A stretch of 57,767 nt of DNA from a virus (IMGVR_UViG_3300020392_000018:1-57767); one strand, 5' to 3'. Counted from the stretch's first letter, positions 3,082 through 46,300 are shown. Made by a program: numbers and translations. Notes: generated by a model from the sequence alone, not told the origin.

Positions 3082-3963
3082 ATGAAAGTAGTTTACGGAC
3101 ACACAGATTCAATCTATGTGCAGATAGATACTGTAGCGAAAGCACAGATGATTTGTGCAGACATACAGGATAGTGTAAGAAAGCATTTTCCTAATGTCAT
3201 GGGATTGAAACAACATCCTGTTGTATTAGAGTTTGAGAAATACTATTCAGCATTAGGTGTTGGCACAACTAAGAATAGAAATGCAGGTATGATTACATGG
3301 AAAGACGGTGAGTGGTTAGACGAGCCGGAATTTGTAATGACAGGTTTTACTGCTAAGAGAGTTAGTGAAACTAAACTTGCTAAGGGAGTTCAAACTGATG
3401 TATTGACTATGTGGGTGAATGAAAAGTCTATGACTGAAATCAATAAATATCTACATGATAAATACAATAGTGTGCTAAATGGTGATATTCCTATCGAGGA
3501 TATTATCAAAAGAAGCAGACTTCGAGAAGATAGATTTACTGTAAGATGTAATGGTTGTAGAAAGAAACACAAGTTACATGAGTGTCTTGCTATCAAGTGG
3601 TGTTTAAAGTGCGGAGAAGACACTTCTAAGTTTACTACATTAGAAGGTAGAAGACCCTCGATAGGTTCGGGTATTGCAGGAGTTGTTCATGCTAAACAGA
3701 ATGGCATTAACTTCGATGATTCTTACCTGTATCTAAAAGTAAAGTCCAACGAAACATATACTAACCCACTTACTAAGGAAGTAAAGACAGTAGATTATGT
3801 TGCAGGTTCACGCTATGTTGATTTTGATAAGCATAAACCCGATTATCAACATTATGCAAACCAAGTAATAAAGAAAGCAGAACCAATTTATAAGGCTATG
3901 AATTGGGATTTGTCTAACATTAAAACGGGCAAGATACAAACTAAATTGGAGGAATGGTTTTGA
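3082..3963 (+). CDS. polB: Family B DNA polymerase, C-terminal subunit (motif C, thumb) with Zn-ribbon insertion
   Basis: Starts MKVVYGHTDSIYV (motif C); LEFEKYY, KNRNAG, GFTAKR, DYQHYANQ, QTKLEEWF (PIP-box-like); own GGAGG RBS. Confidence 0.93.
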   Translation: MKVVYGHTDSIYVQIDTVAKAQMICADIQDSVRKHFPNVMGLKQHPVVLEFEKYYSALGVGTTKNRNAGMITWKDGEWLDEPEFVMTGFTAKRVSETKLAKGVQTDVLTMWVNEKSMTEINKYLHDKYNSVLNGDIPIEDIIKRSRLREDRFTVRCNGCRKKHKLHECLAIKWCLKCGEDTSKFTTLEGRRPSIGSGIAGVVHAKQNGINFDDSYLYLKVKSNETYTNPLTKEVKTVDYVAGSRYVDFDKHKPDYQHYANQVIKKAEPIYKAMNWDLSNIKTGKIQTKLEEWF

Positions 3964-12895: not shown

Positions 12896-13240
12896 TTATT
12901 CTACCTCTAAAAATATAAAAAATTCTATTGTATCATTTGAAGAGAATGGCCCAATTCCATCAAAATTTTCTCTAAACAACATATTAGAACTTGCGTCAAA
13001 AACTCCAACTTCTCTAAGGACTTGCCCCGTCATGGCCGCAGTTGCGCCACTAACTGTTAGTTTTATTTGAACAACATTGGCATCGGATTGGGTAGCCGTA
13101 GCGGTAGCGGTCGCTACAAGAGGAACATCTAAATCTGTTTGAGAAGAAAAGGTAGAGTTTCCACCTAAGCCAACCTTACCGTTATTTACTAGGCTGACCA
13201 AATGCGTAGCCAACAAATTCTGCATTTTTTCAGTTATCAA
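12896..13240 (-). CDS. Tail collar/fibre-attachment-like protein
   Basis: LREVGVFDASSNMLFR motif; position next to fibre. Confidence 0.55.
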   Translation of the reverse strand: MITEKMQNLLATHLVSLVNNGKVGLGGNSTFSSQTDLDVPLVATATATATQSDANVVQIKLTVSGATAAMTGQVLREVGVFDASSNMLFRENFDGIGPFSSNDTIEFFIFLEVE

Positions 13241-19200: not shown

Positions 19201-21933
19201 ATCTCCCGAAACAGTAGTTCCTGTTAAGACAACATCGTTATGTAAGCGAGATTGAAAGTGTGCATCATTTAACATATTAGAAACATCGCTTATTTCATAT
19301 CCAATTGCATTTTCATGTGTGCTTCCGCTACTACCAACTAATCCATCTCCTTCTTCTCCTGTAGAAGTAATCTTAACACCGGAGTTAAAGAACAGACCTT
19401 TGTTAGAAGCACCGCTTAAACTAGTTGTTGAATCTACTAATGTGCTTGTAGCCAATGCTTTGTTTAGTAAATAATTTTTATTAGTTTCTTTATATCCTTC
19501 TAGTGCCGTTCCTTCTGCTCTAGCATTATCTACTAAAGTAAAGCCTGTTCCTGTTAGAGTAGAGGCAATCTCACCAATATAACTCATCATACCCGATGAG
19601 TGTTTTAGATGAACTTTAGTTCCTGCTGTTAATGTTATACTGCTCGACGAAGTTAGTGTTTTATTAGCAAAACTACAAGTAAAGTTAGCACCAACACTTT
19701 GTAATTTATTGTATGGGCTTTGGGTTGAATAAATGATGTCTTGAGAAAATAATGTGTTCTTAGTTATAACAGGAGAAATCAACTTTCTAATATTACTTCT
19801 CCCTGCTAATTTTACTTGTGTTAGACCGTTTTCCTTGAAGTTGTCTATTCTTTCTACTGCCCCATGTAATTTTTCAACTAGAATAGCATACTTTCCTTTC
19901 ATGTAGTCTAACATAGTTCCTTGAGAATGATAGGCCGCTTCATTGCTTGTGCTACCATCCGAATCAAAATATGCTTTATCAGAAAAAGATAAAGTTAGTA
20001 ATTTTTTATCAACATCTACTGCGCTTACTATGGCATACAAAAAGGAAAATTCTTTCGAGAAAAACTTTACCCGAAGCGCACTATCTCTATTTGCTACCAA
20101 TGGAAAATCTGTAAGTAATGTTTTATCTTTTTTATTGTAAGCCCTTCTTTCAAGAACGCTATCATTTGCTAAAGTGTAAGAGCCTGTTGTGAATATTGAT
20201 TCAGTTTCTAATCTATTTTCACTTCTAAAAGTAATACTTTGAGTCTTACCACTAATAGACGCTATGCTTTGCACAATAACTATTCTTGTGCCAACTCTAA
20301 CTTCATCCCCAACATTTAGATAACTTCCTAAATCATGGTCTGTTGTTGTAGCATAAGTATTGCCGCTAGTGTTGGAAGTTATTACAGCACCTATTGACTT
20401 AAATTCGTTCATATTACTACTAAATAATTGATGTCTAATTCTAAGAGGTTCTTCATCTCCTATCTTCTTTGTTAATATTCTAAACGGGTCTGCTAATTTA
20501 ACTTCGGCCAATGTTCCTTTTGCTCCCATAGATTCAAACAACAATTGGTCTAATACATTACTTGATAGATTGGCTTTATCTTTAGAAAGAGCATATGACA
20601 AATATCTATATGGGCCATTATAGTCTTGTGTTGATGTAGTGTTAGTTAAAGCATCATTATCATCTCTTCTAGCATTAGTAAAACATGCGTCACTTGTAAA
20701 TGGAGTATATGCTAATATTGTTTTTCCTTCATTACTAGTGTGTGTCGCAGGATTATCTTGATTTTTTAAGTTATCAACAAGTTTAGTTTTTAGAGTGTAT
20801 TTACTATAATCTATAATATCTGTTCCGAAATCGGGAGTAGTTGTAAAAAAACTTCTAGTGTTTATTGCATCACTACTAGCCGATACTCCAACAAAGTCTA
20901 GTTCAGAAAATAACATATTATATTTTTTGTTATGGTCGAGTTCATTTTTTTTATCTAAGTTTTCGTTGAAAAAATAAAACAGTGGCCTCGCTACTGAAAC
21001 AGAAGCAGAAAGAGAGTTTTTAATTCCTAAACCAATTGCCGCTATTGTTTTATCTGTCGGTATGGGCGTAGAATATAGTTTAAACTTAACATTCTTTGCT
21101 ATCTCATTCCCTAACTTTGGTCTAAACTCAAACGAGTCTCCGCTAATATCATCAGTAAATATTTCCGAAACTTTAGCAAAATGGTGTTTATTTTCATCAT
21201 CGGAATGAATCATTACAAATAAATGGGTAGTCGTTAAATCAATACTGTTTAGTCTCACTCCTGTTTGACTTATAACATCAAAACACTTTATTCTAATTCC
21301 TTCTGTTGTCTCTAAATTTCTGTGTTCTATTCCCAAAACAAGGATAGCACCAGTGGCACTAGTTGTTGCTTTTTCTGTTAATGTAAATTCTGTGCTAGAA
21401 CTTATGGACTTTATTCTAGCATTTTCTGTAGCAAAACCTGTGCCTTGAACAGATTGCCCTACATACAAATTATTGGTATTGCCACTAGATAAGACTACAG
21501 TTGCACTACCTTGAGTAACATTACAATTTGCTAATGTTGTTCTACCAACGGCTGTTAAATTAATACTACCGGAGTTTTCTTCTATTATCGCTACTCCGAA
21601 ATTATCTACTGTAGAACCATTAGAAGTGGGAGATAGCGCACTAACACAAAGTTGTGGGTTGGTTGGAACATCAAACGCTGTTCTAGTAAATGTAAGAGTT
21701 CCAGTAGCACCACTACCGCTTGCTTCCCTACTCATTGTTATGTTAGTGTTAGTTGAGATAGCAGTAACTATTGCGTTATTCTCTATGTTAGTTCCACTCA
21801 CTTTCATGCCTATTAGTATATTACTAGTATCACTAATCGGTAAAGTTTCACTACCCGATGTAGCAGTCGTTGTAGATTTAGTTACCGTAGCGGTTGGCCT
21901 ACTCAATGCAACTAAAGTAGAAACTTCTGTCAT
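13237..21933 (-). CDS. Giant tail protein (2898 aa; hub/central-fibre-like)
   Basis: Repeated [LI]xVGMxVxGTxI beta modules; C-terminal FNEIIVFG...SIEKKGRKT...A..LL...VGDIITV hub-like region; tail module position. Confidence 0.75.
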   Translation of the reverse strand: MTEVSTLVALSRPTATVTKSTTTATSGSETLPISDTSNILIGMKVSGTNIENNAIVTAISTNTNITMSREASGSGATGTLTFTRTAFDVPTNPQLCVSALSPTSNGSTVDNFGVAIIEENSGSINLTAVGRTTLANCNVTQGSATVVLSSGNTNNLYVGQSVQGTGFATENARIKSISSSTEFTLTEKATTSATGAILVLGIEHRNLETTEGIRIKCFDVISQTGVRLNSIDLTTTHLFVMIHSDDENKHHFAKVSEIFTDDISGDSFEFRPKLGNEIAKNVKFKLYSTPIPTDKTIAAIGLGIKNSLSASVSVARPLFYFFNENLDKKNELDHNKKYNMLFSELDFVGVSASSDAINTRSFFTTTPDFGTDIIDYSKYTLKTKLVDNLKNQDNPATHTSNEGKTILAYTPFTSDACFTNARRDDNDALTNTTSTQDYNGPYRYLSYALSKDKANLSSNVLDQLLFESMGAKGTLAEVKLADPFRILTKKIGDEEPLRIRHQLFSSNMNEFKSIGAVITSNTSGNTYATTTDHDLGSYLNVGDEVRVGTRIVIVQSIASISGKTQSITFRSENRLETESIFTTGSYTLANDSVLERRAYNKKDKTLLTDFPLVANRDSALRVKFFSKEFSFLYAIVSAVDVDKKLLTLSFSDKAYFDSDGSTSNEAAYHSQGTMLDYMKGKYAILVEKLHGAVERIDNFKENGLTQVKLAGRSNIRKLISPVITKNTLFSQDIIYSTQSPYNKLQSVGANFTCSFANKTLTSSSSITLTAGTKVHLKHSSGMMSYIGEIASTLTGTGFTLVDNARAEGTALEGYKETNKNYLLNKALATSTLVDSTTSLSGASNKGLFFNSGVKITSTGEEGDGLVGSSGSTHENAIGYEISDVSNMLNDAHFQSRLHNDVVLTGTTVSGDATITALSSTVNLFAGMEVLGTNIPTGTTVSSITNSNTLELSANATGSATGVSLTFSNKATFDTVNTLIDFEIVNTKSAGENKGTIVTIAPYNPLTLGRVDINYANTQDTDFTLVGKLTHNMTIARRFIEVDSDTALSSFNNIRGEKNLHGKPLFVNGKFLANILQVEKDINITISASTADGDATLTVNTSKLSVGMVIDDTTHSNIPSSTTITVVGSDSVEMSNDADNTDPSGHLNIPTEFSLASNQCRIILDREVGVHTFIRASIVAGSPVIKNVDTEKLFVGMKVVGTGLAVGTTYLIESINKEERSITLDNNAELTINITTAFTASFQSGMPIDRLEGHHNQDDVRETTKFTHELNLLNGGHLHGGKNIALLHPQVNQLNVNNITSVLDFKLEAEHPVMYQSGTRAHGLSTSARVDRLGSYQSQFGSSNYRLINLEKGNFNKSKQLLFDNSTMYEDQTSKIKYYASAYRYNAGQYVDGIRQDNIIGTDICQRNFIGEGRIETVSGNSVIDITVEAFISGSTNSFFHNVFKVGQKITGTGIPDNTFIGATVGDGASGDLVLQAKLVTLEGTAVNATASNTSITASFFSFDNKRILESRGFLPSIGDRFFEPTTLEQFHSNPFELTQFRQGGKPKIFYTPHAHTKLATYGPSSYPNLRPTNNNKVKHLNSHQYRDKFEQIDPKIARMFLFSNSDLLPYSSTRKDSLLNRTKDRNIVNYSLLTVGELNITNHSELKEGSKGITNTISALDDSYRQHNILSAFDNKEINKLRRFSIMRLTELVFDCFYNQFDPENIPESTKNIGSINLYPQHTITSLNMHVTNVSGKVLTVAANPTTTVQPEDIIVDRAGRFIGVVASTSSNSITLIDKPHRTIISGATNAVAHYQPTVPRQDGSAPNGAIMYICVIKHATTNQALEQVIACQTVNGSKTVTVLVAGNMDKIHVGMTVTGSGVQTTFTDRVASIDFASNQFELLFNSNSSQNPTNLTFRNKQGTANISGYNTQNDFIQGDGDINPMQFVTMRGLASDGGGFPNNYVSAFTPQGQGTGTGAARGNNDSGYGGNSANFCDTSFSDRVGVNAMGGSVTNFAQDNSIILPMVLTSERFSYFSWLAEFSKFTGTTSLASMTNFSPFPMMSELANTLSTPQSTQSAFGVTKHNASNFQNMVHKATVRKYQGFIPVFLDRWGITGGNGAKVDIGMAATKIGSARNLNIDGSIKQEIRYGLSTVTRTRDTEGSVIGDQIGFATKTLSTDRFNGGRPASGTPTDFNTDKEYDDDADGVFGGFKPTLRIDVGFKTPCVFNTVTATAARLEDTDNRIHDDEEFTSLGGGSEVYLYVDSPNVPFFTRTHEISTFPTPDTVTMSNNATISGTADTTFSRNKVGTKKATNGTDVTVLAFTDYFLTTNAGSNNTSETHIRADNPLWLSHVDLTGCYLVSEEVKVDDGDGGVEDYETANKGGSRSIDNVLSHNASIDLGTPKYILYVISHEIDTTRRDRTHILTVSGNFPSEKSSALDPSRLKTFRIMQPNHTCFYDFSPKKIRLNQLSSQYTKKPKDNLTYTTINNFIYGDKLGSRNDEGNNEGVLSMYVAVDVDGQTSENNIVITNPVNMKDNIMTEGKLQMNFSDGDNNNFTTVDFTDAGNEIGFEMTLENQKELLGIVSVSETMDVLVGTNDSINAKRAIIGSAVSVCQDADKLINEILEENDVEFNLTESTYPYFVAPNYRGVDLFSAIKFLMNKKDKILIENNEQFTVEESASSNFFPNILFTTANTDTRIYSYSREKSQFDLFNEIIVFGRTHRAIRKELRSIEKKGRKTLQVFENELITQEDVDKRATELLRIHNDEGFGLKINVGHKGVSQLRVGDIITVEIPEENIPKSEFIVLEIQHNLRGTMDLELGSYTKGLEDRFAELAIENRNVNNKIREDSFNDNQNIFDFIEEINVKPIKFKIQKKSTPAGAFTLGTNSTDSETLNTNTNALNIGVTTFTTLLEEEF

Positions 21934-29658: not shown

Positions 29659-31473
29659 CTACAATTTTATTATTGCTAACTCTCGTTTTATCTCATTGAT
29701 GAATTTTTTTACTTTGGCTATTTTTATATATTGTCCTTTTGGTTTCTTCTCAGACTCAGGAGTTCTTTCAGCAACCTTACTTCCATACCTATCAAGTAAA
29801 ATCTTTTTGCTAAACACAAACGATTTTGGCCCCTTTTTAGGAGATTTGATAGCATAGTTTGTGCCACTCTTTGTTTCTGTTGCCTTTATTACTATTTGAA
29901 TATTATACACTTTATTTAAATCTCTTAATAAGTTTCCAAATAAATCAATTAGAGTCTTTTCACCATTATATATTTCTTCAGCAAAATTAGTTAGTTTACC
30001 TTCTGCTAATTTCTTTCTTGTATCGTCTCTAATTTCATCGGACTCAAGTTCGTTTATCTGTTGTTCAATATATTCTCTTTTGGCTATTCTAATTTCTTTC
30101 AGTTTATCTAAAACCTCTAAGTTATCAATATTTACTTTATACTCATCGGGTGTTGTTAGACTAGATAGTAAGTCCTTTTCTTCTCTATTACCTACCATAA
30201 TAAAATTATTTAACACTAAAGAATGCGTAGCATATGTATCTACTCCGGCAATTTTAGCCATTCTTTCTCTTAATTGTTTTTCCGTAGAGTTATCTCCGAA
30301 CTTAGTTCTTTTTATTTTAGTAAGGAATTCTTCTTTTTCTTTGTCAGTAACATCGTCTAAATCCTCGCCATATTCATCTTTAAACAACTTAATTAAATAT
30401 CTTCTATATGATTCCAAAACGGGTTTCATTTCTCTAAGAGGTTGGCTTAGTTGCCTATATCTCTTAACATCTTCTTTATTTTCTTGCTCCCATTTGCCAC
30501 CGTATAATATAAACAATGTATCGGGTATGGTTGATAATATTTCTCCGGTTTTTGATGATAGGTCTACAACTTGATTTTTTGCAGAAAAGTCCGGTGTTCG
30601 CATTTGTTTCATAGGAACTTTAACCGGCCCTTTTCCTTGAGTGTCTTCTGCGACTTGAATATCTTTAACATCTTTTACTTGTCTTGGAAAACGGGCGGCT
30701 GTTGATATAGGTCGTGCGCTATCAAGGTCTTTTTTATCGTTGAATTTATATTTACCCGCAGGAGCAAAAACTTCTCCAATTTCATTCAAAGGCAACCTTC
30801 CATCACCGCTTCCAAAAACAGAACCCTCGCTTTTTCCCTCATCTCCACCTGCTGTAGATAGCCCTATATTTTTGAAGCCTAATTTTTTTAAGGTTTGATA
30901 TTTAATATTATTTCTTTTGCCAAACAACTCCATGCCATCTAACTTAAAAATTCTAAACCCTTTTCTATTTTCTACTTCTATTCTATCTGTAAAATATTCG
31001 TCTACTTCTGCGGTAGTTAATCCTCTTTCTAATTTCATTTCTGCTTTTCTTGAAAGTTCTGTATCTTCAAACAACTCGCCAAGTGTGTCACCTACTAGTT
31101 CACTGATACTAAGTTTTTTCAATTCTTCGCCTTTTTTGCTATTCATGAATTCAGTCATATCTTCATTCAATTGAATTTTACCATCTTCTAGCAATTTACC
31201 AATAGATTCATCTTCTATTTTTTCTATGGCTTGTTTGTATATAGTAACGAATTCAGTTTTAGTATATCCCTTTGTTCCTTTAGTGTTCCTATCTACGGTT
31301 TTGGGTTTATACTTTCTGTTGTATTTTTTTATTCCCTCCAATTCATCAGAATATTTCGCTTTATTTAAAAAATCAGCAAAAATGAATTCTGTTAATTTTT
31401 TCTTAGCGATTGTAGCATTCCATGTTTCGGCAACAACTCTCTCCGAGCCTATTGGTTTAACTCGAATTTCCAA
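29659..31473 (-). CDS. K/E-rich hypothetical protein
   Basis: 604-aa ORF, no recognised motif. Confidence 0.7.
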   Translation of the reverse strand: MEIRVKPIGSERVVAETWNATIAKKKLTEFIFADFLNKAKYSDELEGIKKYNRKYKPKTVDRNTKGTKGYTKTEFVTIYKQAIEKIEDESIGKLLEDGKIQLNEDMTEFMNSKKGEELKKLSISELVGDTLGELFEDTELSRKAEMKLERGLTTAEVDEYFTDRIEVENRKGFRIFKLDGMELFGKRNNIKYQTLKKLGFKNIGLSTAGGDEGKSEGSVFGSGDGRLPLNEIGEVFAPAGKYKFNDKKDLDSARPISTAARFPRQVKDVKDIQVAEDTQGKGPVKVPMKQMRTPDFSAKNQVVDLSSKTGEILSTIPDTLFILYGGKWEQENKEDVKRYRQLSQPLREMKPVLESYRRYLIKLFKDEYGEDLDDVTDKEKEEFLTKIKRTKFGDNSTEKQLRERMAKIAGVDTYATHSLVLNNFIMVGNREEKDLLSSLTTPDEYKVNIDNLEVLDKLKEIRIAKREYIEQQINELESDEIRDDTRKKLAEGKLTNFAEEIYNGEKTLIDLFGNLLRDLNKVYNIQIVIKATETKSGTNYAIKSPKKGPKSFVFSKKILLDRYGSKVAERTPESEKKPKGQYIKIAKVKKFINEIKRELAIIKL

Positions 31474-31485: not shown

Positions 31486-32169
31486 TCACATTAACCATTT
31501 AGCCCAAGCCGCACCTTTTTGTATAGCACTACCTAAACCTAATCCGCTTTGTGGAGGTTCGTAACTCATTTGTCCTTGAGCATCTATCCAATATGGTCTT
31601 CCATAATTATCAGTTCCCGATGGTGGAATAGGATAGCCACTACCATTATTCATAGCACCTTGCATTTGTTGATATTGTTGAGTTTGTCCTGTTATTCCTG
31701 CTATCGCCATACCTGCTGTCGGTTGCACCATTTGTTGTGTTTGCATACCACCGCCGCCACTAAATCCTTGAGATTCTAGGTATTGTTGTTTTGCTAACTT
31801 TCTTTGATTGACAACTTCTGTATTGATTGCCGCATCTAATATATTCTTAATATCCAACTCAATGTTCTCTTGAGTAATTTTCTCAAACTCTCTCATAGCA
31901 TCGTTATGAATCTTTAACATGCCTGTTGTAGAATCAGTTGTAAATTGTAACTTAGCCAACATTTTACTAACTACTCTTTCTACAACATCTTCCATAAGTT
32001 TCTCCATCTGTGTCAAAAACATTTGACCATGATATTGAAAGAACTCTTCGACATGATTATCTTGTAAAGAAAGTAAGTTATTTACATTCTTGAATTGTTG
32101 GTCACTCTGTTGTTGAACTGCTCCTAAAACTGTCCCATTACTTGTTCCGAATATTCCCATATTACTCAC
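31486..32169 (-). CDS. Hypothetical protein, coiled-coil + Q/G/P-rich tail + C-terminal amphipathic helix
   Basis: Ends GLGLGSAIQKGAAWAKWLM. Confidence 0.7.
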   Translation of the reverse strand: MSNMGIFGTSNGTVLGAVQQQSDQQFKNVNNLLSLQDNHVEEFFQYHGQMFLTQMEKLMEDVVERVVSKMLAKLQFTTDSTTGMLKIHNDAMREFEKITQENIELDIKNILDAAINTEVVNQRKLAKQQYLESQGFSGGGGMQTQQMVQPTAGMAIAGITGQTQQYQQMQGAMNNGSGYPIPPSGTDNYGRPYWIDAQGQMSYEPPQSGLGLGSAIQKGAAWAKWLM

Positions 32170-32794
32170 CTTTCGCTCCCTTTAATAAATGATTTATCCT
32201 TTCTGTATTTAATTGTATTTCAGTATTCAATCTAACTATTTCTGCCAGTTGTGTTTCTTCGTCTGCTATTGGTGTTGGTGGCGTTATAGTCCATCCCATG
32301 CTAGTCAGCCTCATAACATCTTCTTTTGTTAAGTCAGTTATTTGTTGTCTTTTTAACATAGATGGCATTTTCGCTTTAGGAATAAATGCTTTAAAATCTA
32401 ATCCGTGTTCATCAGCCAGTATTTGTTGTTGTAGCATTTCCATTTGCTTATGGATAGCCGCATGTCTAGGACAGTAAGTTCCTCTAAGTGGCCTACCCTT
32501 CTCTACTTTATCTAGTGGTATTGGTGGTCTTAAATAATCACCGGACTCCCAAATATGATGAGTTCCACATACTACACACCTATCTTTAAAGTTAAACTTG
32601 TGACCATATCTTATGAAAAGAACCTTCTTCTTTTCCGGCAACAACACTTTTCTTATTTCTTTCATTTGCTTCTTTGGTTTTAGCGCATCAAACTTATAAT
32701 CTTCGATTGCCCCAACTGCTCTATACTGTTGTAGTTTAGGCAAAAAGGCATTCTTCGCTTGTTGCGTATTTATCAAATTCGGTTGCTGATACAT
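32162..32794 (-). CDS. Zn-binding hypothetical protein
   Basis: CVVCGTHH...YCPRH. Confidence 0.7.
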   Translation of the reverse strand: MYQQPNLINTQQAKNAFLPKLQQYRAVGAIEDYKFDALKPKKQMKEIRKVLLPEKKKVLFIRYGHKFNFKDRCVVCGTHHIWESGDYLRPPIPLDKVEKGRPLRGTYCPRHAAIHKQMEMLQQQILADEHGLDFKAFIPKAKMPSMLKRQQITDLTKEDVMRLTSMGWTITPPTPIADEETQLAEIVRLNTEIQLNTERINHLLKGAKGE

Positions 32795-32797
32795 CTT

Positions 32798-33358
32798 TCA
32801 TTCCTCTAAGTTTTTTCTCCAATTTTCCGACTCTTCCATTTCTTCTTCTTGTTCGGGGGTAAGGTGCATAGCAGGGTTAATATTTGGTTCAAGCACCTTG
32901 AATCTTTCAATAATCTTTTTTTGTTCTTTATCAACAAATTGTGCTACTTGTGAATTTGGTTCATGGGTATGTATTTCAATATGAGGGGGGTCGCCATACT
33001 GACCTAGAAAATATATCCATATACTGCTTGAGGGAAGATTAAATAAATATTCTTCTCCTAATTTTTTCCATTCATCTTCTTTAATATCAATTTTATACCA
33101 TTCCGCCCCACTTGCCATCATTTCTGATTTAAAAGTATCGTCTCCGCCAAACTCACCATTCACTATATCGTCTAGGGTAAACCAAGCGATATTAAGCGTG
33201 TATTCCTTTGACATATAGACTTGACCTGAAAACCCTTCAACTAACTTGGCATCCTTTCCATATATTTTTTCAAGTTCGTCTAATATTTTTTTGGTCAAAT
33301 TATCAAGATATTTTTGAGCCGAATACCTACCCATGCTCTTTATAATTTTAAACCACAT
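32798..33358 (-). CDS. Hypothetical protein with W-x-x-I-I-K leader
   Basis: Likely start MWFKIIKS at 33358. Confidence 0.65.
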   Translation of the reverse strand: MWFKIIKSMGRYSAQKYLDNLTKKILDELEKIYGKDAKLVEGFSGQVYMSKEYTLNIAWFTLDDIVNGEFGGDDTFKSEMMASGAEWYKIDIKEDEWKKLGEEYLFNLPSSSIWIYFLGQYGDPPHIEIHTHEPNSQVAQFVDKEQKKIIERFKVLEPNINPAMHLTPEQEEEMEESENWRKNLEE

Positions 33359-33363
33359 AATAA

Positions 33364-34026
33364 TCAATAATCCTTTATCATACTAGTAATTCCTTTATAC
33401 ACCATTTCGGGGTCGGACTTTGCTGATACTATATATTTGAAACAAGGTATGCCCTTGTCATTCAACTGCCTCATCCCGTATGTAAATGGTTCAAATATTT
33501 CATGTTTATCTATGGACTTATCACTCTTGTATTTATCTCCCCACATATCATATTTGTTAGCCCATATACCAACAGCCATAGGATAGTCTGCCTCTTTCTT
33601 CTTTCTACCCGAAGGCCACCTGTCTGCTACAATAGTATCTACTAAAAACTTCCATGCTAATTGATGGTCTAAATTAGAAGGTGAATCTAAATGCCTGTGG
33701 TCTATCATGAAAATAATATACTTTACTCTACGCTTCTGCATATCCTTAACCCATTCTTTCCAATAGATTGCCTCTCCTCCTAAGTCAGCACTTTTAATTG
33801 TATGAGAGTCACCATCAATCTTTACATTTTTTCTAGTGGCTCTATGTAAACCAACAGTTCTATCGTTTATTGTGGGAACTTCGCCCCTTGTTCTAAGTTG
33901 ATGACTCAAAGTTGTTTTACCAACCATTGTAGAACCATAGACTCCAAAATTAATTGCGTGAACTCTTTTGTAGAAACCTATTATGGCTTCACCAACTAAT
34001 ATGGCAAAGCCTGTCATTATTGACAT
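33364..34026 (-). CDS. Ras-superfamily small GTPase (Arf/Sar1-like)
   Basis: G1 GSTMVGKTT, G2 RTVG, G3 DLGGE, G4 NKYD, G5 SAK; start at ATG 34026 (TAATG overlap). Confidence 0.9.
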   Translation of the reverse strand: MSIMTGFAILVGEAIIGFYKRVHAINFGVYGSTMVGKTTLSHQLRTRGEVPTINDRTVGLHRATRKNVKIDGDSHTIKSADLGGEAIYWKEWVKDMQKRRVKYIIFMIDHRHLDSPSNLDHQLAWKFLVDTIVADRWPSGRKKKEADYPMAVGIWANKYDMWGDKYKSDKSIDKHEIFEPFTYGMRQLNDKGIPCFKYIVSAKSDPEMVYKGITSMIKDY

Positions 34027-34316
34027 TAAACAATCACTAATCCCTTTCCTTCCATGCGTTCCCAAAAAGTAATTGCTTCATCTACAGGCATATGAACTAG
34101 AGGAATATCATTAGTTTCAATTTCTCCTTCTAAATAATCAATAAATTCTCTTAGGTATTTTTCACCTAAGCCCTTATTTCTATATCCCTTTTTTAAACCA
34201 AATTGATTAATTTGCCAATAAGTTCCATATTCTCCATCAATTAATTCTGCTTCTCCATCACTTATTCTATCGTTAGAAATCCAAGAATAAGTGCTTTTGA
34301 GAACATCTTTCCACAT
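34026..34316 (-). CDS. GNAT acetyltransferase-like protein with W-x-x-V-L-K leader
   Basis: YRNKGLGEKYL acetyl-CoA motif A; EAITFWERM. Confidence 0.65.
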   Translation of the reverse strand: MWKDVLKSTYSWISNDRISDGEAELIDGEYGTYWQINQFGLKKGYRNKGLGEKYLREFIDYLEGEIETNDIPLVHMPVDEAITFWERMEGKGLVIV

Positions 34317-34317
34317 A

Positions 34318-34536
34318 TTAATGCCCCCAAATATCTTTAGCCCTCTCTATAATCCAACCCATTATATTAATGTCAAAGACTCCCATTATATTACCAATCA
34401 AAAAGGCTGATAGTGCCGCACAAGAACCCCAAAAATACATCTTCATTTTTATGAAGAACATATCTGCTGAATGCGCTCGACTTTGATTATATACATAGTC
34501 GGACTCACTAAAGCCCATTATGTCGCCAAAGACCAA
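34318..34536 (-). CDS. Small membrane protein
   Basis: Hydrophobic MYFWGSCAALSAFLIGNIMGVF. Confidence 0.65.
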   Translation of the reverse strand: MVFGDIMGFSESDYVYNQSRAHSADMFFIKMKMYFWGSCAALSAFLIGNIMGVFDINIMGWIIERAKDIWGH

Positions 34537-34547
34537 ATGACCACAAC

Positions 34548-34955
34548 CTACTGTTGTATAGTCGCTAAGAATTCATTTCCTATTGTGTTGTCGTCGTATT
34601 CTTCAGCCGCCATAACATTACTGCGCCAATTTTCACGCCTTACTGTTCCGAACTGTTTCATGCTTTCTTGTAGTTTAGACTTGATTTGTTCTTCTCTTTG
34701 TAATCTTTGGAAATGGTTTTCTATTTGTCTATCTAACAATCTAATCTCAATCTTGTCGTTTAATGATAAGTCAAATAGTGCTTTCATAACCATGATTGCT
34801 CCTACTGTAATAAGTCCAAATAAGACAGAATGCGCTAATGCTCCGTAGGGGAAACCTAGACCGTATGCTGAATAAAAATATACATTCGCTCCGCTAACCG
34901 TTCCGACAAATAGAATTGTCATAACCAACCTTGTATCTTGACTTAGTGCCGCCAT
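34548..34955 (-). CDS. Two-TM membrane protein with C-terminal coiled coil (holin-like topology)
   Basis: Two hydrophobic segments followed by charged helix. Confidence 0.65.
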   Translation of the reverse strand: MAALSQDTRLVMTILFVGTVSGANVYFYSAYGLGFPYGALAHSVLFGLITVGAIMVMKALFDLSLNDKIEIRLLDRQIENHFQRLQREEQIKSKLQESMKQFGTVRRENWRSNVMAAEEYDDNTIGNEFLATIQQ

Positions 34956-35322: not shown

Positions 35323-35667
35323 TTACTCTTTCTTTGTTTTAGAAGGAGTTTTTGCTTTTGGTTTAGGCTTTGGTTTAGGTTTAGGTTTAGACTTCTCTTT
35401 CTTAGGAAGAAGTTCATCTGCTAATTCTTTGACAGTTGAAATGTCCTTACCTATTTCCCTACAGCCTATTAGAACTAGTTTTTCATTAAGTCCTAATAAC
35501 TCTTCACGGTCTTCTTCGTCAAACCTAAAAAACAAGTTTGGGTCGGAAAGACGAACAACCGACCATTTTACTGAAACGGTTGCTTCGTCTTTCCTTGTTA
35601 TTTCTTGTTTTGGTGTAATGTTAAGCCTACCGATTTTTGAATCATCAGTTAATCTAACTGTTACCAA
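35323..35667 (-). CDS. Hypothetical protein with KP-repeat basic tail
   Basis: KSKPKPKPKPKPKAK. Confidence 0.65.
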   Translation of the reverse strand: MVTVRLTDDSKIGRLNITPKQEITRKDEATVSVKWSVVRLSDPNLFFRFDEEDREELLGLNEKLVLIGCREIGKDISTVKELADELLPKKEKSKPKPKPKPKPKAKTPSKTKKE

Positions 35668-38968: not shown

Positions 38969-38991
38969 TGCGCTCGTATGGAAAAAATTTA

Positions 38992-39007
38992 CTTTTAATA
39001 TATAATA
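38992..39007 (-). promoter_or_regulatory. Putative archaeal TATA-type (late) promoter
   Basis: TATTATATATTAAAAG ~30 nt upstream of ATG 38968 in intergenic gap. Confidence 0.5.
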
Positions 39008-39027
39008 CACACGGTCATTTTAAACTA

Positions 39028-41577
39028 TTAATCCTCTTTTGGAGGCAATTTAAGAACGCTGTATTTATCTTCATAAATATTCCAAAGCCCCTTATCTGCA
39101 TCAGTGTCAGCAGGTTTTTGTTCATAGCCTGTCCACGCTAACCACATCTTTTTTCCTTTAACTTCAAGCATTCTAACATGAAGTTTAGTTTCAAACTTGT
39201 TTCCATCTAAGAAGTATTCATGATAGCCTTCTTTTTGAACACCTAATTTAACATCACCACTATCAATTAATTTACGCTTAGAAATATTCTTAGCAACAAT
39301 AGCAGGGAACTTACCTGCTTTTCCAAATAATTCAAAAATGTCATCTTGTGAATCTAATCTAACCATCCAGTTGATGCTCTCATCACCTAACTTCATTACT
39401 ATATTTAGATTATCGTCATCTCTAAGATATATCTTAAACTCACCACTTCTATATTTTTCGGGTGTTTTGTATTCTTTTTTGATAGTGTCCATCAGTATCT
39501 TATCATTTTCTGCGAACAACTTTTTTGTTTTAACATCAAAAGATATACCATCTCTATTTTCAAACCAATCTTTTACTCTACTTTCTTTACTTTCCAGTAT
39601 ATCTTGATACTTCTTTTTGTGATTTTTAACTAAAAAGTTGTGAACTTCTTTTGGTGTTTTAGCACCTTTTTGTTTTAAGAAATTAAATATAGCAACAGTA
39701 AGTTTAGATTGTTTTGTTTTCATTATTTCTTCTGCTTGCTCTTTCCACAAGTCTAAATCCATTAATGCATTTTTAGACATTAAATTGTCTTGCTCAAAAC
39801 CATAAATAGTAAAGCCATCCATATCTCCCTTAATTATTATATTAGCCTCACCGTGAATATGGTCAGTAACTATAATCCCTTTTTCTACTTCTTCTACATT
39901 ATATTTTAGAGACTTATCAGTATCGTTAATTAACATCTGCAAAGTCACTAACTTATCCGGTGTTTTACATTCAGCAATCTCATTTATCTTTGCTGAGTAA
40001 ACTACAGGCTTACCCTTTACCTCCTTTACTTTATCAATAGAAACTCTAACTACTTCTCCAACATCTGCTGAAACTTTAGTATTAGTAGCACTACCCACAT
40101 CAAGATAGTTTATACCTTCTATTTTTTCCCCATCCTCTTCAATTGGCCCTGCTCCTAATTTGTATGAAAAGTTAGAACCGCTTTTCTTTTTATCAAGAAC
40201 AATTAAATCTAATTCTACAACAGGTTTCCATCTAATCCATTTAGGATTCTTCTTTGTTCCTAAGAAATATGTAGAAGTTGCATCTTTAATCATAGCCCCT
40301 TCTGCTGTTGGCATTTCCATAATTTTCTTAGCATACTCATCTACATCTTTTAGATTGTCTGCTACTCTAGTATCTTTTTTAGAAGGAAATGTCAATGCTT
40401 CACTAGAATGTATAGAATAATTATTAAACATTATTTGCATTCTGTTTTGTAATGTGTCTTCCATGAGGTTTTCTTCATTGTGTCTCATAATGTCAAATAC
40501 ATGGATTCTTGGCTTACCATCTCTTTTTCCTGCTAAATACTCAACCGCTTCTTTTCTTTTAAGAGAGTCATCTTCATCAAACAGAACAAAAGAAGCATCC
40601 AAGATACAATCACCAAAATGTTTTTTGTTTAGTTCTTCAACTGCTTCTTTACATTTTGATGTAATATCTTTACCTGTATAATCATAGACTTTTATGTTCT
40701 TATCTATTTTATGTAGTTGAATTCTAAAACCATCATACTTTTCTTGAACATAGAACTCACCACTAAATCCTTTTAGTTCATTCATGTCTTCTATTGTAAA
40801 TATTCTATACATTGGTTTGTTAGGAATTATGAAATCACTTTGGGCTTTTTCTTCATCTGATTTTTCCTCTTTTAGAATAGTTTTTTTATTATCATTTTTT
40901 TCTTCTTTAGCCTTAGCCTCATCTAAATCTGTATCTATGTCTTCTAATTCAGCCCACTCTTCTTTGCTATTATTAGATAAGAATATTAATTCTAGCATAT
41001 TCATAGCGGCTTTTACTTTTGTTTCTACTTTCTTAGAGTCTTTACCATCACCATAATGTTCTATGATGTAAAGTGCAACATCATCAACTTCTAAATCTAA
41101 TCCTGTTAAACCGTCTGTAATATTATCGGGTTTCATATCTTTAATTGAATATGCTTCTTTTGGTAGTGCTTTATCATCTTCTCTAATAGCATAGTGAACA
41201 AATTTAATCATAAGTTCAGGTGAATCCAACAGTGCTTCTAAAACATCACCTTTAAATTTTTTAGCGAAAGGGTCGCTAACTTCTTCCGAAGAATATCTTA
41301 ATGCCTTGATTCCTTCGTATAATTTTTCAGCATTATTAGTGCTAACATCGGAAACATCATTTGCTTCTAGTAAATCATCATCAATAAAATCTTTAAGTTC
41401 ATTTGAAAGAGCATCAGTCATTTCATATGCTTCTTTGATTTTGTTTACTGCGTTTCTCCATTTAGAACCGTATTCCTTTGGGTCGGTTCTTGCTGAAAGA
41501 TAAGCAACTCTTGTTCTCTCAAAGAGTCTTAGAATATCTGTGGATATTGACTTATCCTTCTCAATAAGAAGTGGCAT
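39028..41577 (-). CDS. ATP-dependent DNA ligase-like multidomain protein
   Basis: Motif I QEKYDG, IIIa VFDIM, IV EGAMIKD, V WIRWKP..ELDLIV, OB region; long N- and C-terminal extensions. Confidence 0.85.
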   Translation of the reverse strand: MPLLIEKDKSISTDILRLFERTRVAYLSARTDPKEYGSKWRNAVNKIKEAYEMTDALSNELKDFIDDDLLEANDVSDVSTNNAEKLYEGIKALRYSSEEVSDPFAKKFKGDVLEALLDSPELMIKFVHYAIREDDKALPKEAYSIKDMKPDNITDGLTGLDLEVDDVALYIIEHYGDGKDSKKVETKVKAAMNMLELIFLSNNSKEEWAELEDIDTDLDEAKAKEEKNDNKKTILKEEKSDEEKAQSDFIIPNKPMYRIFTIEDMNELKGFSGEFYVQEKYDGFRIQLHKIDKNIKVYDYTGKDITSKCKEAVEELNKKHFGDCILDASFVLFDEDDSLKRKEAVEYLAGKRDGKPRIHVFDIMRHNEENLMEDTLQNRMQIMFNNYSIHSSEALTFPSKKDTRVADNLKDVDEYAKKIMEMPTAEGAMIKDATSTYFLGTKKNPKWIRWKPVVELDLIVLDKKKSGSNFSYKLGAGPIEEDGEKIEGINYLDVGSATNTKVSADVGEVVRVSIDKVKEVKGKPVVYSAKINEIAECKTPDKLVTLQMLINDTDKSLKYNVEEVEKGIIVTDHIHGEANIIIKGDMDGFTIYGFEQDNLMSKNALMDLDLWKEQAEEIMKTKQSKLTVAIFNFLKQKGAKTPKEVHNFLVKNHKKKYQDILESKESRVKDWFENRDGISFDVKTKKLFAENDKILMDTIKKEYKTPEKYRSGEFKIYLRDDDNLNIVMKLGDESINWMVRLDSQDDIFELFGKAGKFPAIVAKNISKRKLIDSGDVKLGVQKEGYHEYFLDGNKFETKLHVRMLEVKGKKMWLAWTGYEQKPADTDADKGLWNIYEDKYSVLKLPPKED

Positions 41578-43028: not shown

Positions 43029-43384
43029 CTCTTTTCCTCCTTTGGTGGATATACTAAATCTCTTAATTGTCTGTAAAGCAATTCATAGTCCTTACGAAGT
43101 TCCGTAGCCGAAGCGACTATATCTACATTCCGTTCTTCCATAGATTTCATTTTCTTTGTGAGTTTTTTATCTGATTTAACTAGTTCAACATCCTTTAATG
43201 CTGATACTAATTCACCCAACTTAGTAAAATCTTGACCAAAAAATTCTGTTGGTTGTGCGGCTTGTAGTGTTTTCTTTAGACGCTTAGTTTGTTTTTTATC
43301 TAATGAGTCTAATATATTCTTCTTTACCTTTTCTTGCTTTTTTATGGTAAACTCTTTACCTTCTTCATAATAATCCCATGTCAT
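43025..43384 (-). CDS. Hypothetical protein
   Basis: ORF track; ATGA overlaps. Confidence 0.65.
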   Translation of the reverse strand: MTWDYYEEGKEFTIKKQEKVKKNILDSLDKKQTKRLKKTLQAAQPTEFFGQDFTKLGELVSALKDVELVKSDKKLTKKMKSMEERNVDIVASATELRKDYELLYRQLRDLVYPPKEEKR

Positions 43385-46300
43385 TTTTCAGCCTCCATCT
43401 CTCTTCTTTGTTCTTCTAAGAATCTTAATCTTTCTTGTTCTTTTTGGTCTTCTTCTTGCTTTTGTGCTTTGAAATCCTCTAATAGTTCTTTGAATGTTCC
43501 TTGTTTCTTGCTATCATTATACTTTAGTTCATAACTATCCCTTGTATCTTCTTTAGCAAATTTTTCAGCAAACTTAGGATTGTTTTCTGCTAATACTCGC
43601 ATGCGGCCTCTTTTCATAAACTGTATTCTAATCTTAAAAGTTTCATATTTTTCATCTTTTTCTTCTTCAATGGTTGGCCTTTCTTCTGTAGAAACTAAAT
43701 CCATATCAAAACTACCTCTAAAGTTTTTAATTATATCTGCCAAAGAGTCATCTGCTTCTTTTTGAATTTTTTTCTGTCCTTCTATATTTTCTAAATGTTT
43801 TTCTTGCACTTTCTTGTGTTGTTTTCTGTAAGCATCAAAAGCATCTGTTAAATCAATCATCTCTGCAAATTCCTTTCCTATTATTTCATTGGCCAACAAT
43901 TCTTTTATGTTATCCTGCGAAGCATCTATTTTCAATTTACTAAAATCAAAAACTTTAGTCTTAGTTTTGAAAGTTTTAACTAGTGCGTCAAAGGCTTTTT
44001 CTGCTTCAGCAACTTCTTTAACTTCTTCTGCAAATGTTTCAACATCACCTCTTGCTCTAGTGGTGGCTAGTTTATCATAGTCTTCCTTTGAAACTACTTT
44101 AGTAGCCTCTAAAATAATCTCTCTTGCTAAACCTTCATCAGTCATGTTTGAATCAAATAACTCTTGTAGTGAATCCTTTTCATTGGCTCTAGCAGTATCT
44201 TCTAATATTTTTTCGCTTTGTTTTGCTGATAGTCTTATGATTCCTTCAAACTTAAATAAATTAGGAAGAGTCTCTTTTGCTTTTTTATTTTGTTCTTTAA
44301 GACGAGCCTCTACTTTTTTATATTCACTAAGTTTTTTATCTTCTTTACCTTCTGCCAAGAATCTTTCTTCTGCGCTTACTAAATCAACCTTATTAGTTCT
44401 AGCCCACATTGCCATTGCTTCGCCCACATCAACTTCTTTTGGTATTTTCATACCTTTATCTATGAAATCATCAAACCTATCTATCATAGTATCTGCATAT
44501 TCTTTCAATGCTTCTGCGTAGTTTGGTTGCTTAGTTGGCTCTAAAGCATCGGCCTTGCTTGCGAAAGACTTTCTAAGTTTAGTAATTTTATCTACAAACA
44601 CTTCTACTTCTCGCATTACTGTGAGTATTTCTTGTTTTTCATCCATCAATTCTATGAATTGTTCCATCTGTTTCTCGATTTCTTCTTGTTCCTTTGTTTT
44701 AATACTTAGATTATTTAGTGCTTCTATTACAGTTCCAAACCGTTCTTCGCTTGGTTCTTTAGCATCTTCTAATTGTTTTATAGCATCTGCTTTAACCCTG
44801 ACCTTATCGAATAAAACATCCCAATAGTCTTTGACTTGCTGAACTCCAATTTCTTTTGTCTTACCGACCTTTACATCTTCTTCTATTTGTTTTAAGTTCC
44901 TAGTAAACTCCGAATGAATTATCATAGGGAATATAGGTGCAAACTTTTGACCCTCTATAGTGACTTTCTTTCTTTCCATTTCACTTAACTTCCAAGTCCT
45001 AGTATCTTCAACACCAAAAGACATTGGACTATTATCATCTATTAACCCAACAAGACTTAGATTTTTTAGAGCAGAAAGTAAACCTGTTGAAAGTTCTGCT
45101 TCTTTCTTTAGCATATCTTTTACAATGAAGTCGGGGATGGGTGAAAGCATTTCTTTCATTTCAACCCTTCTTCTAACAAAGTCAGGTAATTGGTCTAAGG
45201 CTCGCTTAAGTTGCTTTTTCTTATCAGTAGTAGTGGTGTCTTGTTCAAAAACAGTTTTTCCTGTGAGTTTTTTATATGTTCCTCTAATTGCATTTATAAT
45301 TTTATCATCTTCTAATATTTCTTGTATTTTCTTTACTACTGTTTCTAAATCATCGAATCCTTCTATTTCACCAAACATCGGGAACTCTCTTCTAGCAAAA
45401 TAATAATCTCCACTAGTCGGCATAATAACATCAAAGTGCTTGTATGCTTCTTTACCAATTAGGTCTGCTTTCTTGAAATAATACTTTGGTTTCTTATCCT
45501 GTCTTCTTTTAGCGTCAGAAACTTCAACCTCGCTCAGTAATTTTGGCAAACTCTTTAGCCTTCTATCAATGTCTTTCTTCATACCTCTTAGTTTCTTTTC
45601 GTTTCCTTGTATTTTTTCATCTAATTCAGCCACTTTACTTCTTATTTTATTTGCGACTTCATTTTTCTTATCCTTTCTTTGTGGTGCAGGAAGTGACATT
45701 AATTTTTGTTGTTCTTTTTCTCTTCCCTTTCTTTGCTTATCTATTTTTTTAGTTAGTTCTGTAATTTTTTGTCTTATTTCTAGTAGAGCCTTTCTAGTTT
45801 TATCTAAGTCTTCTTTACTCTTTTTTCCTTTTTCTGTCAAAGACTTTGCCTCTCTTTCTTCTAACCTTTCTAACTTATCATTACTTACACTATCTCCTTG
45901 TAATATGGTAATGGCATCTCTTATCATCTCCAATCCATATTTTGTGCCTTCAAATATTTGTTTAGCAACCAACATTCTTTTTTCGTCGCTAGTTCCTTTT
46001 AGTCTTGAAATATCCTTTAACTCATTCAATTCAGATAATAGTGTTTCATAGAATGGTTTAGTGTATTTTGTTAATCCTTCAGTTTCTCTTTGTTGTAAAC
46101 TTGCTAATACTTTTTTATTTTGTGCAGTTAGTAATCTTTGTAGATTTTCTATTTTCTTGCGAGTAGTTCCTTCTTCTTCTTCTTGTATAGAATTTAGTAG
46201 GTAACTTAAATAATTGAATACTCTTTGTATTGCTTCTTTTTGAACACCTTTACCATCAGTTATCATAGCACCCTTTCTGCCCTTAGATTGCTTTATTCCC

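Follow-up and report, generated by a model that had tools for sequence, protein, structure and literature searches.

What is a small GTPase, set among genes for small membrane proteins, doing downstream of the capsid gene of a tailed virus of archaea? The question is raised by positions 31486..34955 of the virus record IMGVR_UViG_3300020392_000018, a sequence of 57.8 kb (57,767 nt, referred to at its full length as the window) with an estimated completeness of 62% and a GC content of approximately 0.32–0.40. A preliminary description of these positions had proposed a GTPase-centred membrane module, with lysis, egress or membrane remodelling as candidate functions. Judged by its genes, the window covers part of the genome of a magrovirus-like tailed virus of marine archaea, its gene set and layout matching the published magrovirus description (PMC5434244). 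The conservation of gene order described below indicates that five core genes form one functional cassette of such magrovirus-like archaeal viruses, and we consider it very probable that this is a real, membrane-associated GTPase cassette. Its purpose is a more delicate matter, and timed membrane disruption or remodelling for virion release is suggested here tentatively, by analogy.

The region contains seven open reading frames (ORFs), all on the minus strand and tightly packed with gaps of -40 to +12 nt, in the order and at the positions first reported. The core consists of five co-oriented genes, here named TM1, TM2, GTPase, P1 and P2, and two further genes are accessory. Transmembrane (TM) segments were called with 19-residue Kyte-Doolittle (KD) windows and a cut-off of 1.6; lengths are in amino acids (aa).

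34548..34955, minus strand: TM1 protein, 135 aa, a predicted hairpin of two TM segments with a charged coiled-coil tail on the cytoplasmic side; the cassette starts with this gene (hydropathy and alignment)
34318..34536, minus strand: TM2 protein, 72 aa, about 32 soluble N-terminal residues and then one hydrophobic segment (KD 1.67; hydropathy)
34026..34316, minus strand: accessory insert outside the core, 96 aa, with a weak GNAT-like match and an MWK-type N-terminal tag (Pfam)
33364..34026, minus strand: Arf-like small GTPase, 220 aa from the ATG at 34026 (motifs, model and profiles)
32798..33367, minus strand: accessory insert outside the core, 186–189 aa, of no family, with an MWF-type tag from 33358 (sequence)
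32162..32794, minus strand: P1 protein, 210 aa, with a basic N-terminal region and a Cys/His cluster (C73, C76, C108, H111; sequence)
31486..32169, minus strand: P2 protein, 227 aa, with a Q/N/G-rich N-terminus, a helical middle and a G/Q/P/M-rich C-terminal third (composition)

The case for a cassette is carried by the gene order in relatives. Close relatives were collected by a GTPase search of viral contigs, keeping the best 80 of 317 related stretches, and 43 loci span the interval from the capsid gene to a gene coding for a 372-aa protein. All 43 have the same order on one strand, namely capsid, a 101-aa gene, TM1, TM2, GTPase, P1, P2 and the 372-aa gene, and all four partners of the GTPase are present in each of the 51 close loci with enough flanking sequence. 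A second search picked loci by their capsid gene, so that they were not chosen via the GTPase, and the five genes are found in 32 of 32 such loci with at least 5.5 kb downstream. Two single distant GTPases (34–35% identical to the window protein) served as queries for more remote relatives and recovered 84 further viral loci, on contigs of up to 118 kb, whose sampled GTPases are 32–35% identical to that of the window. The cassette order is kept in 73 of the 77 with adequate flanks, as a TM protein of 170–270 aa, a TM protein of 78–100 aa, the GTPase, a P1 homologue and a Q/G-rich P2 homologue; the remaining four (L161–L164; such handles denote individual loci of relatives) are adjacent to a thermosome gene and have positional counterparts. 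Viral-contig searches with P0046, P0058, P0013 and P0065 returned nothing, and P0013 was then found in metagenome contigs. A third lineage, composed of metagenome contigs, has the same set in all three of its long contigs, with one extra acidic protein between TM2 and the GTPase. The five genes thus co-occur in order in close, distant and third lineages, which bears out both the synteny across relatives and the GTPase-centred module anticipated in the preliminary description.

An additional small gene is seen at the end of the cassette in some relatives, coding for a protein of 80–105 aa with two hydrophobic segments. It follows P2 in 73 of the 77 distant loci and in one third-lineage contig (e.g. 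L111:9372-9638, L155:9564-9833 and L172:9411-9728), and is absent from the window group.

The order is constant while the genomic address of the cassette changes from group to group, as follows.

Window group: cassette 1.4 kb downstream of the capsid gene
Three distant genomes (L111, L084, L155): cassette about 20–23 kb upstream of the capsid gene
L161 and L164: cassette immediately preceded by a thermosome gene
Third lineage: cassette behind glycosyltransferase genes of the GT4 and GT2 types, with a serine recombinase nearby

The distant cassettes follow an ORF of about 2,000 aa in L111 and L084, and ORFs of 960 and 123 aa in L155, and a DNA-binding protein is encoded downstream of the cassette in L111, L084, L155, L127 and L142. 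The ORF of about 2,000 aa is rich in Cys motifs in both genomes. The thermosome genes (Cpn60_TCP1, group II chaperonin; L161:4250-5785 and L164:3820-5481) are identified with E values of 1e-133 to 1e-140. The third lineage carries a fused double-GT4 glycosyltransferase of 811 aa and a GT2 enzyme on the cassette strand, with the serine recombinase a few kb from the cassette and in the opposite orientation (L176:1822-5117 and 13984-14721, and also L172 and L167), and possibly represents a different virus type or an integrating element.

A comparison is provided by the haloarchaeal relative HVTV-1, where the protease and capsid genes are followed by four small genes and gp125, and nothing like the cassette is present at the same spot; gp125 is homologous to the window 372-aa protein (hmmsearch E 7.8e-13). 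Because the HVTV-1 array lacks the cassette, the cassette of the window group, together with a 604-aa gene, is an insertion into a conserved head-to-tail array. This insertion and the changing address argue for an autonomous functional unit and not a fixed part of the virion, and the position inside the head-tail array is given no functional weight because it holds for the window group only. The genes had been described as lying between capsid decoration genes and the head-tail adaptor; the position stands, in this virus group only, and neither label could be confirmed. For the four small post-capsid genes no family match was obtained, and the 372-aa flanking gene matches only phrog_17057 (function unknown) and HVTV-1 gp125 (annotated hypothetical). 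One of the post-capsid genes (35323..35667, minus strand) codes for a 114-aa protein with a C-terminal tail of Lys-Pro dipeptide repeats, and the loose end of one RNA-library contig falls in this repeat.

A role in the virion itself, as an assembly chaperone or GTPase, a connector or ejection proteins, would fit the window group, where the cassette shares its strand with the capsid cluster on one side and the tail genes on the other, and some phages encode ejection proteins with TM segments in their structural modules. We regard such a morphogenetic role as quite improbable, as the head-tail position is lost in the distant genomes (about 20–23 kb from the capsid gene) and in the third lineage (beside glycosyltransferases), HVTV-1 builds its virion without the cassette, and no PHROG structural families are seen among the cassette proteins.

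The cassette genes are under purifying selection. With the NG86 approximation, saturated pairs being dropped, the median ratio of nonsynonymous to synonymous substitution (dN/dS) relative to relatives is 0.058 for the GTPase, the lowest of the genes tested, followed by TM1 (0.068), P2 (0.129), TM2 (0.134), P1 (0.154), the capsid gene (0.178) and the 101-aa gene (0.191). Within the same 43 genomes the median identity is 84% for the GTPase versus 67% for the capsid protein. Chance is excluded as an explanation of the arrangement, since hundreds of contigs conserve the five genes and purifying selection acts on them. Per-locus identities are also correlated, with Spearman coefficients of 0.62–0.85 among cassette genes, 0.48–0.59 between these and the capsid gene, and 0.82–0.86 between P1 and downstream tail-side genes, and they are not used as evidence because linkage confounds them.

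The longest ORF for the GTPase is 33364..34065, with a start at 34065. The true start is almost certainly the ATG at 34026, because most relatives align from about residue 14 (residue 14 or nearby for most of the 80 listed, residue 1 for a minority), the Atlas record starts there, and the family members among the 120 clusters listed, of 406 GTPase clusters, are 217–238 aa long. The window protein has the sequence motifs G1 GSTMVGKT (GxxxxGKT), G3 DLGGE, G4 NKYD and G5 SAK. Among 134 unique family sequences, G1 and NKxD are present in every one and DxGG in 130, in which the next residue is E (74), Q (47), D (6) or H (3). With this residue so variable, intrinsic hydrolysis may be weak or dependent on a partner.

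The AlphaFold model of the GTPase (predicted local distance difference test, pLDDT, 82.3; predicted template modelling score, pTM, 0.81) is closest to Arf-family proteins. The top 36 rows of the VIA-align search are all Arf-family chains, with Z scores of 17.4–18.6 and root-mean-square deviations of 2.3–2.5 for most, led by ARF6 (2a5f_A; Z 18.6, deviation 2.3 over 161 residues) and followed by ARL1, ARF1 on membrane tubules, ARL3 and the Asgard ArfR1. The first non-Arf rows, an Asgard RagA-like protein and a mimivirus Rab, have Z 17.4, a margin of only about 1 Z, and Rab, Rag and Ras folds lie within about 1.2 Z of the best match. Foldseek likewise finds the small-GTPase fold, with a ranking that mixes Rab, Arl and Ras and does not separate the subfamilies.

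Profile searches point in the same direction. The family profile matches Arl3 in the Protein Data Bank (PDB) over its full length (E 4.6e-9, independent E value 2.6e-6), and Pfam Arf (PF00025) is matched by five of 15 aligned family members, with a best E of 1.9e-15. The window protein lies below the Arf threshold, with no Pfam Arf match at E up to 0.1, and its own Pfam matches are all sub-threshold: MMR_HSR1 (18.3 bits, cut-off 21.9), Roc, and SRPRB (E 0.028, 14.3 bits, cut-off 25), the last also matched by two of the 15 family members with a best E of 8.1e-5. The small_GTP model of NCBIfam is matched below threshold as well. Atlas neighbours outside the family carry Arf annotations, and the Joint Genome Institute name 'GTPase SAR1 family protein' is attached to three of the 120 listed clusters. 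By predicted fold and motifs, then, the protein is placed as a divergent member of the Arf/Sar-like branch.

The sub-threshold MMR_HSR1 match (a 50S ribosome-binding GTPase family) leads to another view of the locus, namely that the genes are unrelated neighbours and the GTPase is ribosome- or translation-related, of the Era/EngA type; EngA is also the top whole-sequence PDB match of the family profile. The EngA score, however, sums two G domains, the better of which has an independent E value of 0.012 versus 2.6e-6 for Arl3 at full length, and an Arf-family assignment is favoured by the DxGG-type G3, by the hydrophobic helix at the N-terminus and by the structural ranking. Gene order conserved at three genomic addresses also argues against chance neighbours, and we regard this view as very improbable.

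A single-sequence PDB search with the GTPase gave only a chance antibody match (E 0.79), there is no match among 50,697 phage records, and only 65 proteins are found at E up to 0.001 among 1.84 billion representatives, with no close cellular relative. No longer, fused forms of the GTPase were found, which is weak evidence. Among the top 50 matches in a viral structure library, every entry named as a GTPase is from a giant virus of eukaryotes. The only match in 185,579 species genomes is on a 12.2-kb contig (L166, 85% identity) in a bacterial metagenome-assembled genome labelled Maricaulis, and is probably a mis-binned virus fragment and not a host signal.

Two features of the GTPase suit lipid-surface binding. 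Ahead of the canonical G domain there is a predicted N-terminal helix (residues 3–22, at a low pLDDT of 46–55), which the preliminary description does not mention; it is uniformly hydrophobic (KD 1.66; mean Eisenberg value 0.72 for close relatives and 0.49 for distant ones; hydrophobic moment about 0.3) and is followed by basic residues. The second is a conserved polybasic insertion between G3 and G4, before strand 5, with a median of seven K/R per 18 residues (n=137).

The two genes at the start of the cassette code for putative membrane proteins, and TM segments are predicted in the TM1 and TM2 proteins of all three lineages. TM1 was described as a protein with two TM segments plus a coiled coil, and one strong and one borderline segment are present: the strong one has a best KD window of 2.09 at residues 43–61, with windows of at least 1.6 covering residues 37–65, and the first, at residues 10–28, reaches 1.53 and is under the cut-off. 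A charged helical tail lies C-terminal of the hydrophobic segments, and the layout recurs in the family alignment, where TM1 aligns in register with the TM1 families of both other lineages as TM segment, Gly-Leu-aromatic loop, TM segment, juxtamembrane Lys-x-x-Phe and coiled coil. In profile comparisons by hhalign the probability of a match to these families is only 6–15% (6% for the distant group). The third-lineage TM1 (137 aa) is related to the distant TM1 family with a probability of 98.4%, and shares length and layout with the 135-aa TM1 of the window. TM2 has the single hydrophobic segment first attributed to it. Its positional analogue in the other lineages is a protein of 69–100 aa with a C-terminal TM segment, and homology with the distant counterpart is not demonstrable (hhalign 2%). 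Both genes are present in all 43 spanning close loci, with median identities of 60% (TM1) and 76% (TM2). TM1, TM2 and their distant counterparts have no Pfam or PHROG family and no holin family, with chance-level matches only (DUF5862, E 0.031; phrog_30514, of unknown function, E 0.0074). Two further candidates for TM1 were set aside: a match to the charged linker of coatomer delta (E 0.002) is compositional, arising from K/E/Q/R-rich low complexity, and is not evidence of relatedness, and a Pfam match to CCDC-167 is sub-threshold.

P1 is always the first core gene after the GTPase. It had been described as Zn-binding, and the Cys/His residues are indeed there: of the 138 unique family members, 125 retain a TYCPxH motif and 124 have a Gly-Arg/Lys shortly before it. 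The upstream Cys site is variable (CxxC in 53, CxxxxC in 54 and a single Cys in 17 of the 138), and metal binding by P1 is putative. Homology with the distant-lineage P1 family is supported (hhalign 96.8%, E 2.4e-10). None of the 940 homologous clusters has a Pfam domain or an informative name, P1 itself has no Pfam match and no PDB match (best profile E 0.11), an Atlas search gave scores of 0.84 or less and no family, and the structure model is of low confidence (mean pLDDT 46.6, pTM 0.33).

P2 is present in all 43 spanning close loci with a median identity of 79%, and its C-terminal composition (18% G, 15% Q and 8% P in the last 92 residues) is that of the Q-G-P-rich protein first described. 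The protein ends in a short hydrophobic-basic tail. An amphipathic C-terminal helix had also been noted; the signal is weak in the window protein (hydrophobic moment 0.33–0.40 over 11 residues) and absent in distant relatives, which end in a Gly-rich, basic tail. Homology with the distant P2 family is probable (hhalign 72.5%), and the P2 profile matches the counterpart in L164 at 1e-5. Nothing was found in a comparison of the P2 profile with the PDB (E 0.17). A match of P2 to Phasin_2 was rejected as sub-threshold (20 bits versus a cut-off of 24.9).

The two accessory inserts are rare, and it was correct to set them aside as tagged genes. The 96-aa insert is present in one of the 43 spanning close loci and three of the 32 capsid-picked loci, and the 186–189-aa insert in two of the 43. 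RNA-library contigs from relatives run directly from 34026 to 34318 and from 32804 to 33364, in each case exactly without the insert. The 96-aa protein matches Pfam Acetyltransf_1 (E 7e-4, 20.3 bits) just under the cut-off of 20.7 bits. More generally, mutually unrelated accessory genes (68–191 aa) are found at exactly two junctions of the cassette, immediately behind the stop codons of the 72-aa gene and of the GTPase gene, and nearly all of those with at least 68 residues begin with a short Met-Trp-(Lys/Phe)-x-(Ile/Val/Leu)-(Leu/Ile)-Lys tag, preceded by conserved DNA. All 30 instances are in the close group, with none in the distant or third lineage (examples are L019:5156-6668, L053:6674-6985 and L031:5482-6692), and the tag with its conserved upstream DNA looks like a cassette-exchange or targeting signal. 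Directly behind the cassette is a hypervariable slot, occupied in the window by a K/E-rich 604-aa gene (29659..31473, minus strand) which has a weak match (24–31%) in only two of the 43 spanning relatives; some gene fills the slot.

These variable genes, together with the glycosyltransferases of the third lineage, raise the question of whether the cassette serves superinfection exclusion or modification of the host envelope. The two glycosyltransferase genes precede the third-lineage cassette on the same strand, the cassette changes its genome position as a mobile block would, its junctions carry inserted accessory genes that vary, and small TM proteins are typical of exclusion systems. We nevertheless think this improbable. 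No PADLOC model is matched among 14 proteins, except for a weak Csx20 match on the accessory 96-aa gene, and the cassette is found throughout each lineage in strongly conserved form, with the lowest dN/dS of the genes tested, unlike exclusion genes, which are usually patchy and turn over fast.

The remainder of the window was characterized by scanning 54 ORFs against Pfam and PHROG, and its recognizable genes are as follows.

61..1179 and 3082..3963, plus strand: split family-B DNA polymerase
26143-27786: tail-tube protein
36385-37722: HK97-type capsid protein
37724-39010: prohead protease
39028..41577, minus strand: 849-aa protein with an ATP-dependent DNA ligase domain, within the structural block, between the portal-side genes and the protease
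47889-49535: portal
53249-54691: large terminase
Elsewhere in the window: Cas4-like PD-(D/E)XK nuclease and ERCC4 nuclease

The polymerase halves are about 1.9 kb apart with further ORFs in between. A split family-B polymerase is known from one magrovirus group, and a ligase inside the structural module is a published magrovirus oddity (Philosof 2017, PMC5434244). Magroviruses are there assigned, as tailed viruses, to Marine Group II archaea, and the host of the window virus is taken from that source. Within the phage collection, the capsid protein is closest to those of haloarchaeal Druskaviridae (24–25% identity). Two giant ORFs on the minus strand (13237..21933, 2,898 aa, and 43381..47652, 1,423 aa) have no Pfam family. 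No tRNA genes or Rfam families were found in the window. The absence of a visible endolysin, noted from the start, agrees with the scan, in which no endolysin-like Pfam family was found among the 54 ORFs.

What, then, is the cassette for? We infer that it acts as a small-GTPase switch on the cytoplasmic face of the host membrane, and suggest, as a tentative reading that we hold with less than even confidence, that its purpose is timed membrane disruption or remodelling for virion release. Egress is favoured because the cassette is co-oriented with the late genes, the archaeal host has no murein wall, no other lysis function is visible, and the review literature describes no egress machinery for tailed archaeal viruses. 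The mechanism is proposed by analogy with Arf/Sar1 and with the archaeal GTPase ArvA (PMC10927574). The cassette would be expressed with the late genes, and the TM hairpin/coiled-coil protein and the small TM protein would mark or prepare a site on the membrane. GTP loading would expose the N-terminal helix of the GTPase, and helix and polybasic loop together would lock the GTPase onto that site. P1, through the Gly-Arg beside its Cys/His site, may modulate the nucleotide cycle in the manner of a GTPase-activating protein (GAP), which would make sense of the non-canonical residue after DxGG, and P2 may be a recruited effector or scaffold. The output would be a timed deformation or breach of the membrane, releasing virions from a host without a murein wall.

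Several observations count against this proposal. The window GTPase has Glu directly after DxGG, at the position of the Arf catalytic Gln. Homology of TM1 and TM2 across lineages is argued from architecture and position, the profile scores not being significant. None of the partners matches a holin, lysis, coat, guanine-nucleotide exchange factor (GEF) or GAP family in Pfam, PHROGs, NCBIfam, PADLOC or PDB sequences, and the late lysis or egress reading of the preliminary description, with neighbours acting as GEF, GAP or effector, accordingly stays tentative. The orientation and position of the genes are the sole grounds for supposing late timing. The cassette is covered by RNA-library contigs from relatives (in small shares of the stretch), which show presence only, not level, timing or strand, with DNA carry-over possible. 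A promoter and terminator consensus scan, which uses a bacterial model, found nothing above shuffled sequences, with 30 promoter sites versus 39.9 expected. Finally, a cassette beside glycosyltransferases, as in the third lineage, fits surface modification as well as it does egress.

The analogy with ArvA suggests a further possibility, that the cassette drives vesiculation or builds a membrane platform, such as a replication or assembly site, instead of bringing about lysis. ArvA is an archaeal Arf-like GTPase with an N-terminal amphipathic helix that drives membrane vesiculation, and controls the output of extracellular vesicles; it is followed in its operon by ArvB and a Zn-ribbon protein, ArvC (Mills 2024, PMC10927574). 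It is the closest functional precedent, and the viral GTPase shares its fold class and helix and is likewise followed by a Cys/His protein; the thermosome gene directly upstream of the cassette in two distant genomes would fit an assembly site. OapB (PF09846) and OapC (PF09845, the Zn-ribbon protein) are, however, absent from the window and from four distant virus records. Six-frame searches for OapB at E up to 0.01 found it in none of these five, with positive controls in Haloferax volcanii and Methanosarcina acetivorans, and OapC was found in neither the window (0/1) nor the distant records (0/4), with positive controls in three archaea. We consider vesiculation or a platform unlikely; the data do not separate vesiculation from lysis.

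Virion release by way of the GTPase switch can also be stated in a stronger form, in which the cassette is a self-contained, virus-encoded minimal membrane machine of the Arf/Sar type that serves as the egress, or lysis-timing, device of tailed archaeal viruses. TM1 would then be the membrane receptor or exchange factor, the GTPase the switch, P1 the GAP and P2 a polymerising effector. This joint assignment of roles is speculative, and we would not expect it to hold in full. If it did, membrane remodelling by small GTPases would be a viral invention or acquisition in archaea, by a machine independent of the ArvABC partners and of eukaryotic coats.

The cassette is of interest because it offers a concrete candidate lead, which may be the first, to the egress of tailed archaeal viruses, whose players a 2024 review calls 'completely uncharacterized' (Kuiper 2024, PMC10791045). 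Among the hosts of magroviruses are some of the most abundant surface-ocean archaea (PMC5434244), and the release of these viruses therefore bears on carbon flow. The word 'GTPase' is absent from the main texts of Philosof 2017, Prabhu 2025 (and one supplement file), a 2023 Frontiers survey and Liu 2021, although the supplementary tables of Philosof 2017 may list the gene, and full-text searches turned up no publication about small GTPases of phages or archaeal viruses. What the sequences suggest is a cassette of archaeal viruses in which a small GTPase serves as membrane switch and all its partners are new, and of this cassette we found no printed description. It is under stronger constraint than the capsid protein and occurs in every adequately covered genome of three lineages; it would extend the Arf-like, membrane-anchored GTPases to viruses of prokaryotes, together with four new protein families whose probable role is to regulate or carry out a membrane process driven by the GTPase. 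It is also relevant to the origin of small-GTPase membrane trafficking, beside ArvA and the Asgard Arf-like proteins. The biochemistry of such a switch (nucleotide binding, membrane binding and P-loop mutants) can be assayed without host culture.

Among known systems, the closest by behaviour is ArvA/ArvB/ArvC (OapA/B/C) of Haloferax volcanii and other archaea, with which the cassette shares an Arf-like GTPase with an N-terminal helix, a compact operon and small partners including a Cys-rich, Zn-type protein. ArvA combines a weak PF01926 match with Arf resemblance (PMC10927574), and the viral GTPase does the same. The viral cassette differs in being virus-encoded and in adding two TM proteins upstream and a Q/G-rich protein downstream; in the downstream position, P1 belongs to another family.

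The best structural matches are found in the Arf/Sar1 proteins (Arf1, Arf6, Arl1, Arl3 and Sar1), which share the DxGG-type G3 and the N-terminal helix before the G domain. The viral GTPase differs from them in having Glu for the catalytic Gln, an additional polybasic insertion between G3 and G4, and a helix more uniformly hydrophobic than the classic amphipathic one, and no coat, GEF or GAP homologues are detectable in the viral cassette. A further comparison by architecture is with SR-beta, the beta subunit of the signal-recognition-particle receptor, with an Arf-related G domain after an N-terminal hydrophobic anchor and weak, sub-threshold SRPRB matches; it differs in that no SR-alpha-like partner is recognised in the viral cassette.

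Phage holin cassettes resemble the viral one in placing side by side, in the late block, genes for small membrane proteins that have one or two TM segments and a charged C-terminus, and such proteins would suit a virus that has to breach a membrane at a set time. TM1 and TM2 conform to the holin architecture (one to three TM segments, a charged tail and a late-block position), as do many non-holins. The differences are that neither protein matches a holin family in Pfam or PHROGs and that no endolysin is encoded among the 54 scanned ORFs. We know of no holin system centred on a GTPase. Virus-associated-pyramid proteins were considered as a comparison and set aside, there being no sequence-family match in support. 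Finally, the Ras-, Rab- and Ran-like proteins of giant viruses are also virus-encoded small GTPases of the same fold. They are recent captures of eukaryotic Rab, Ran and Ras genes by viruses of eukaryotes, whereas the family described here comes from tailed archaeal viruses and has its own N-terminal anchor and a set of four partner genes.

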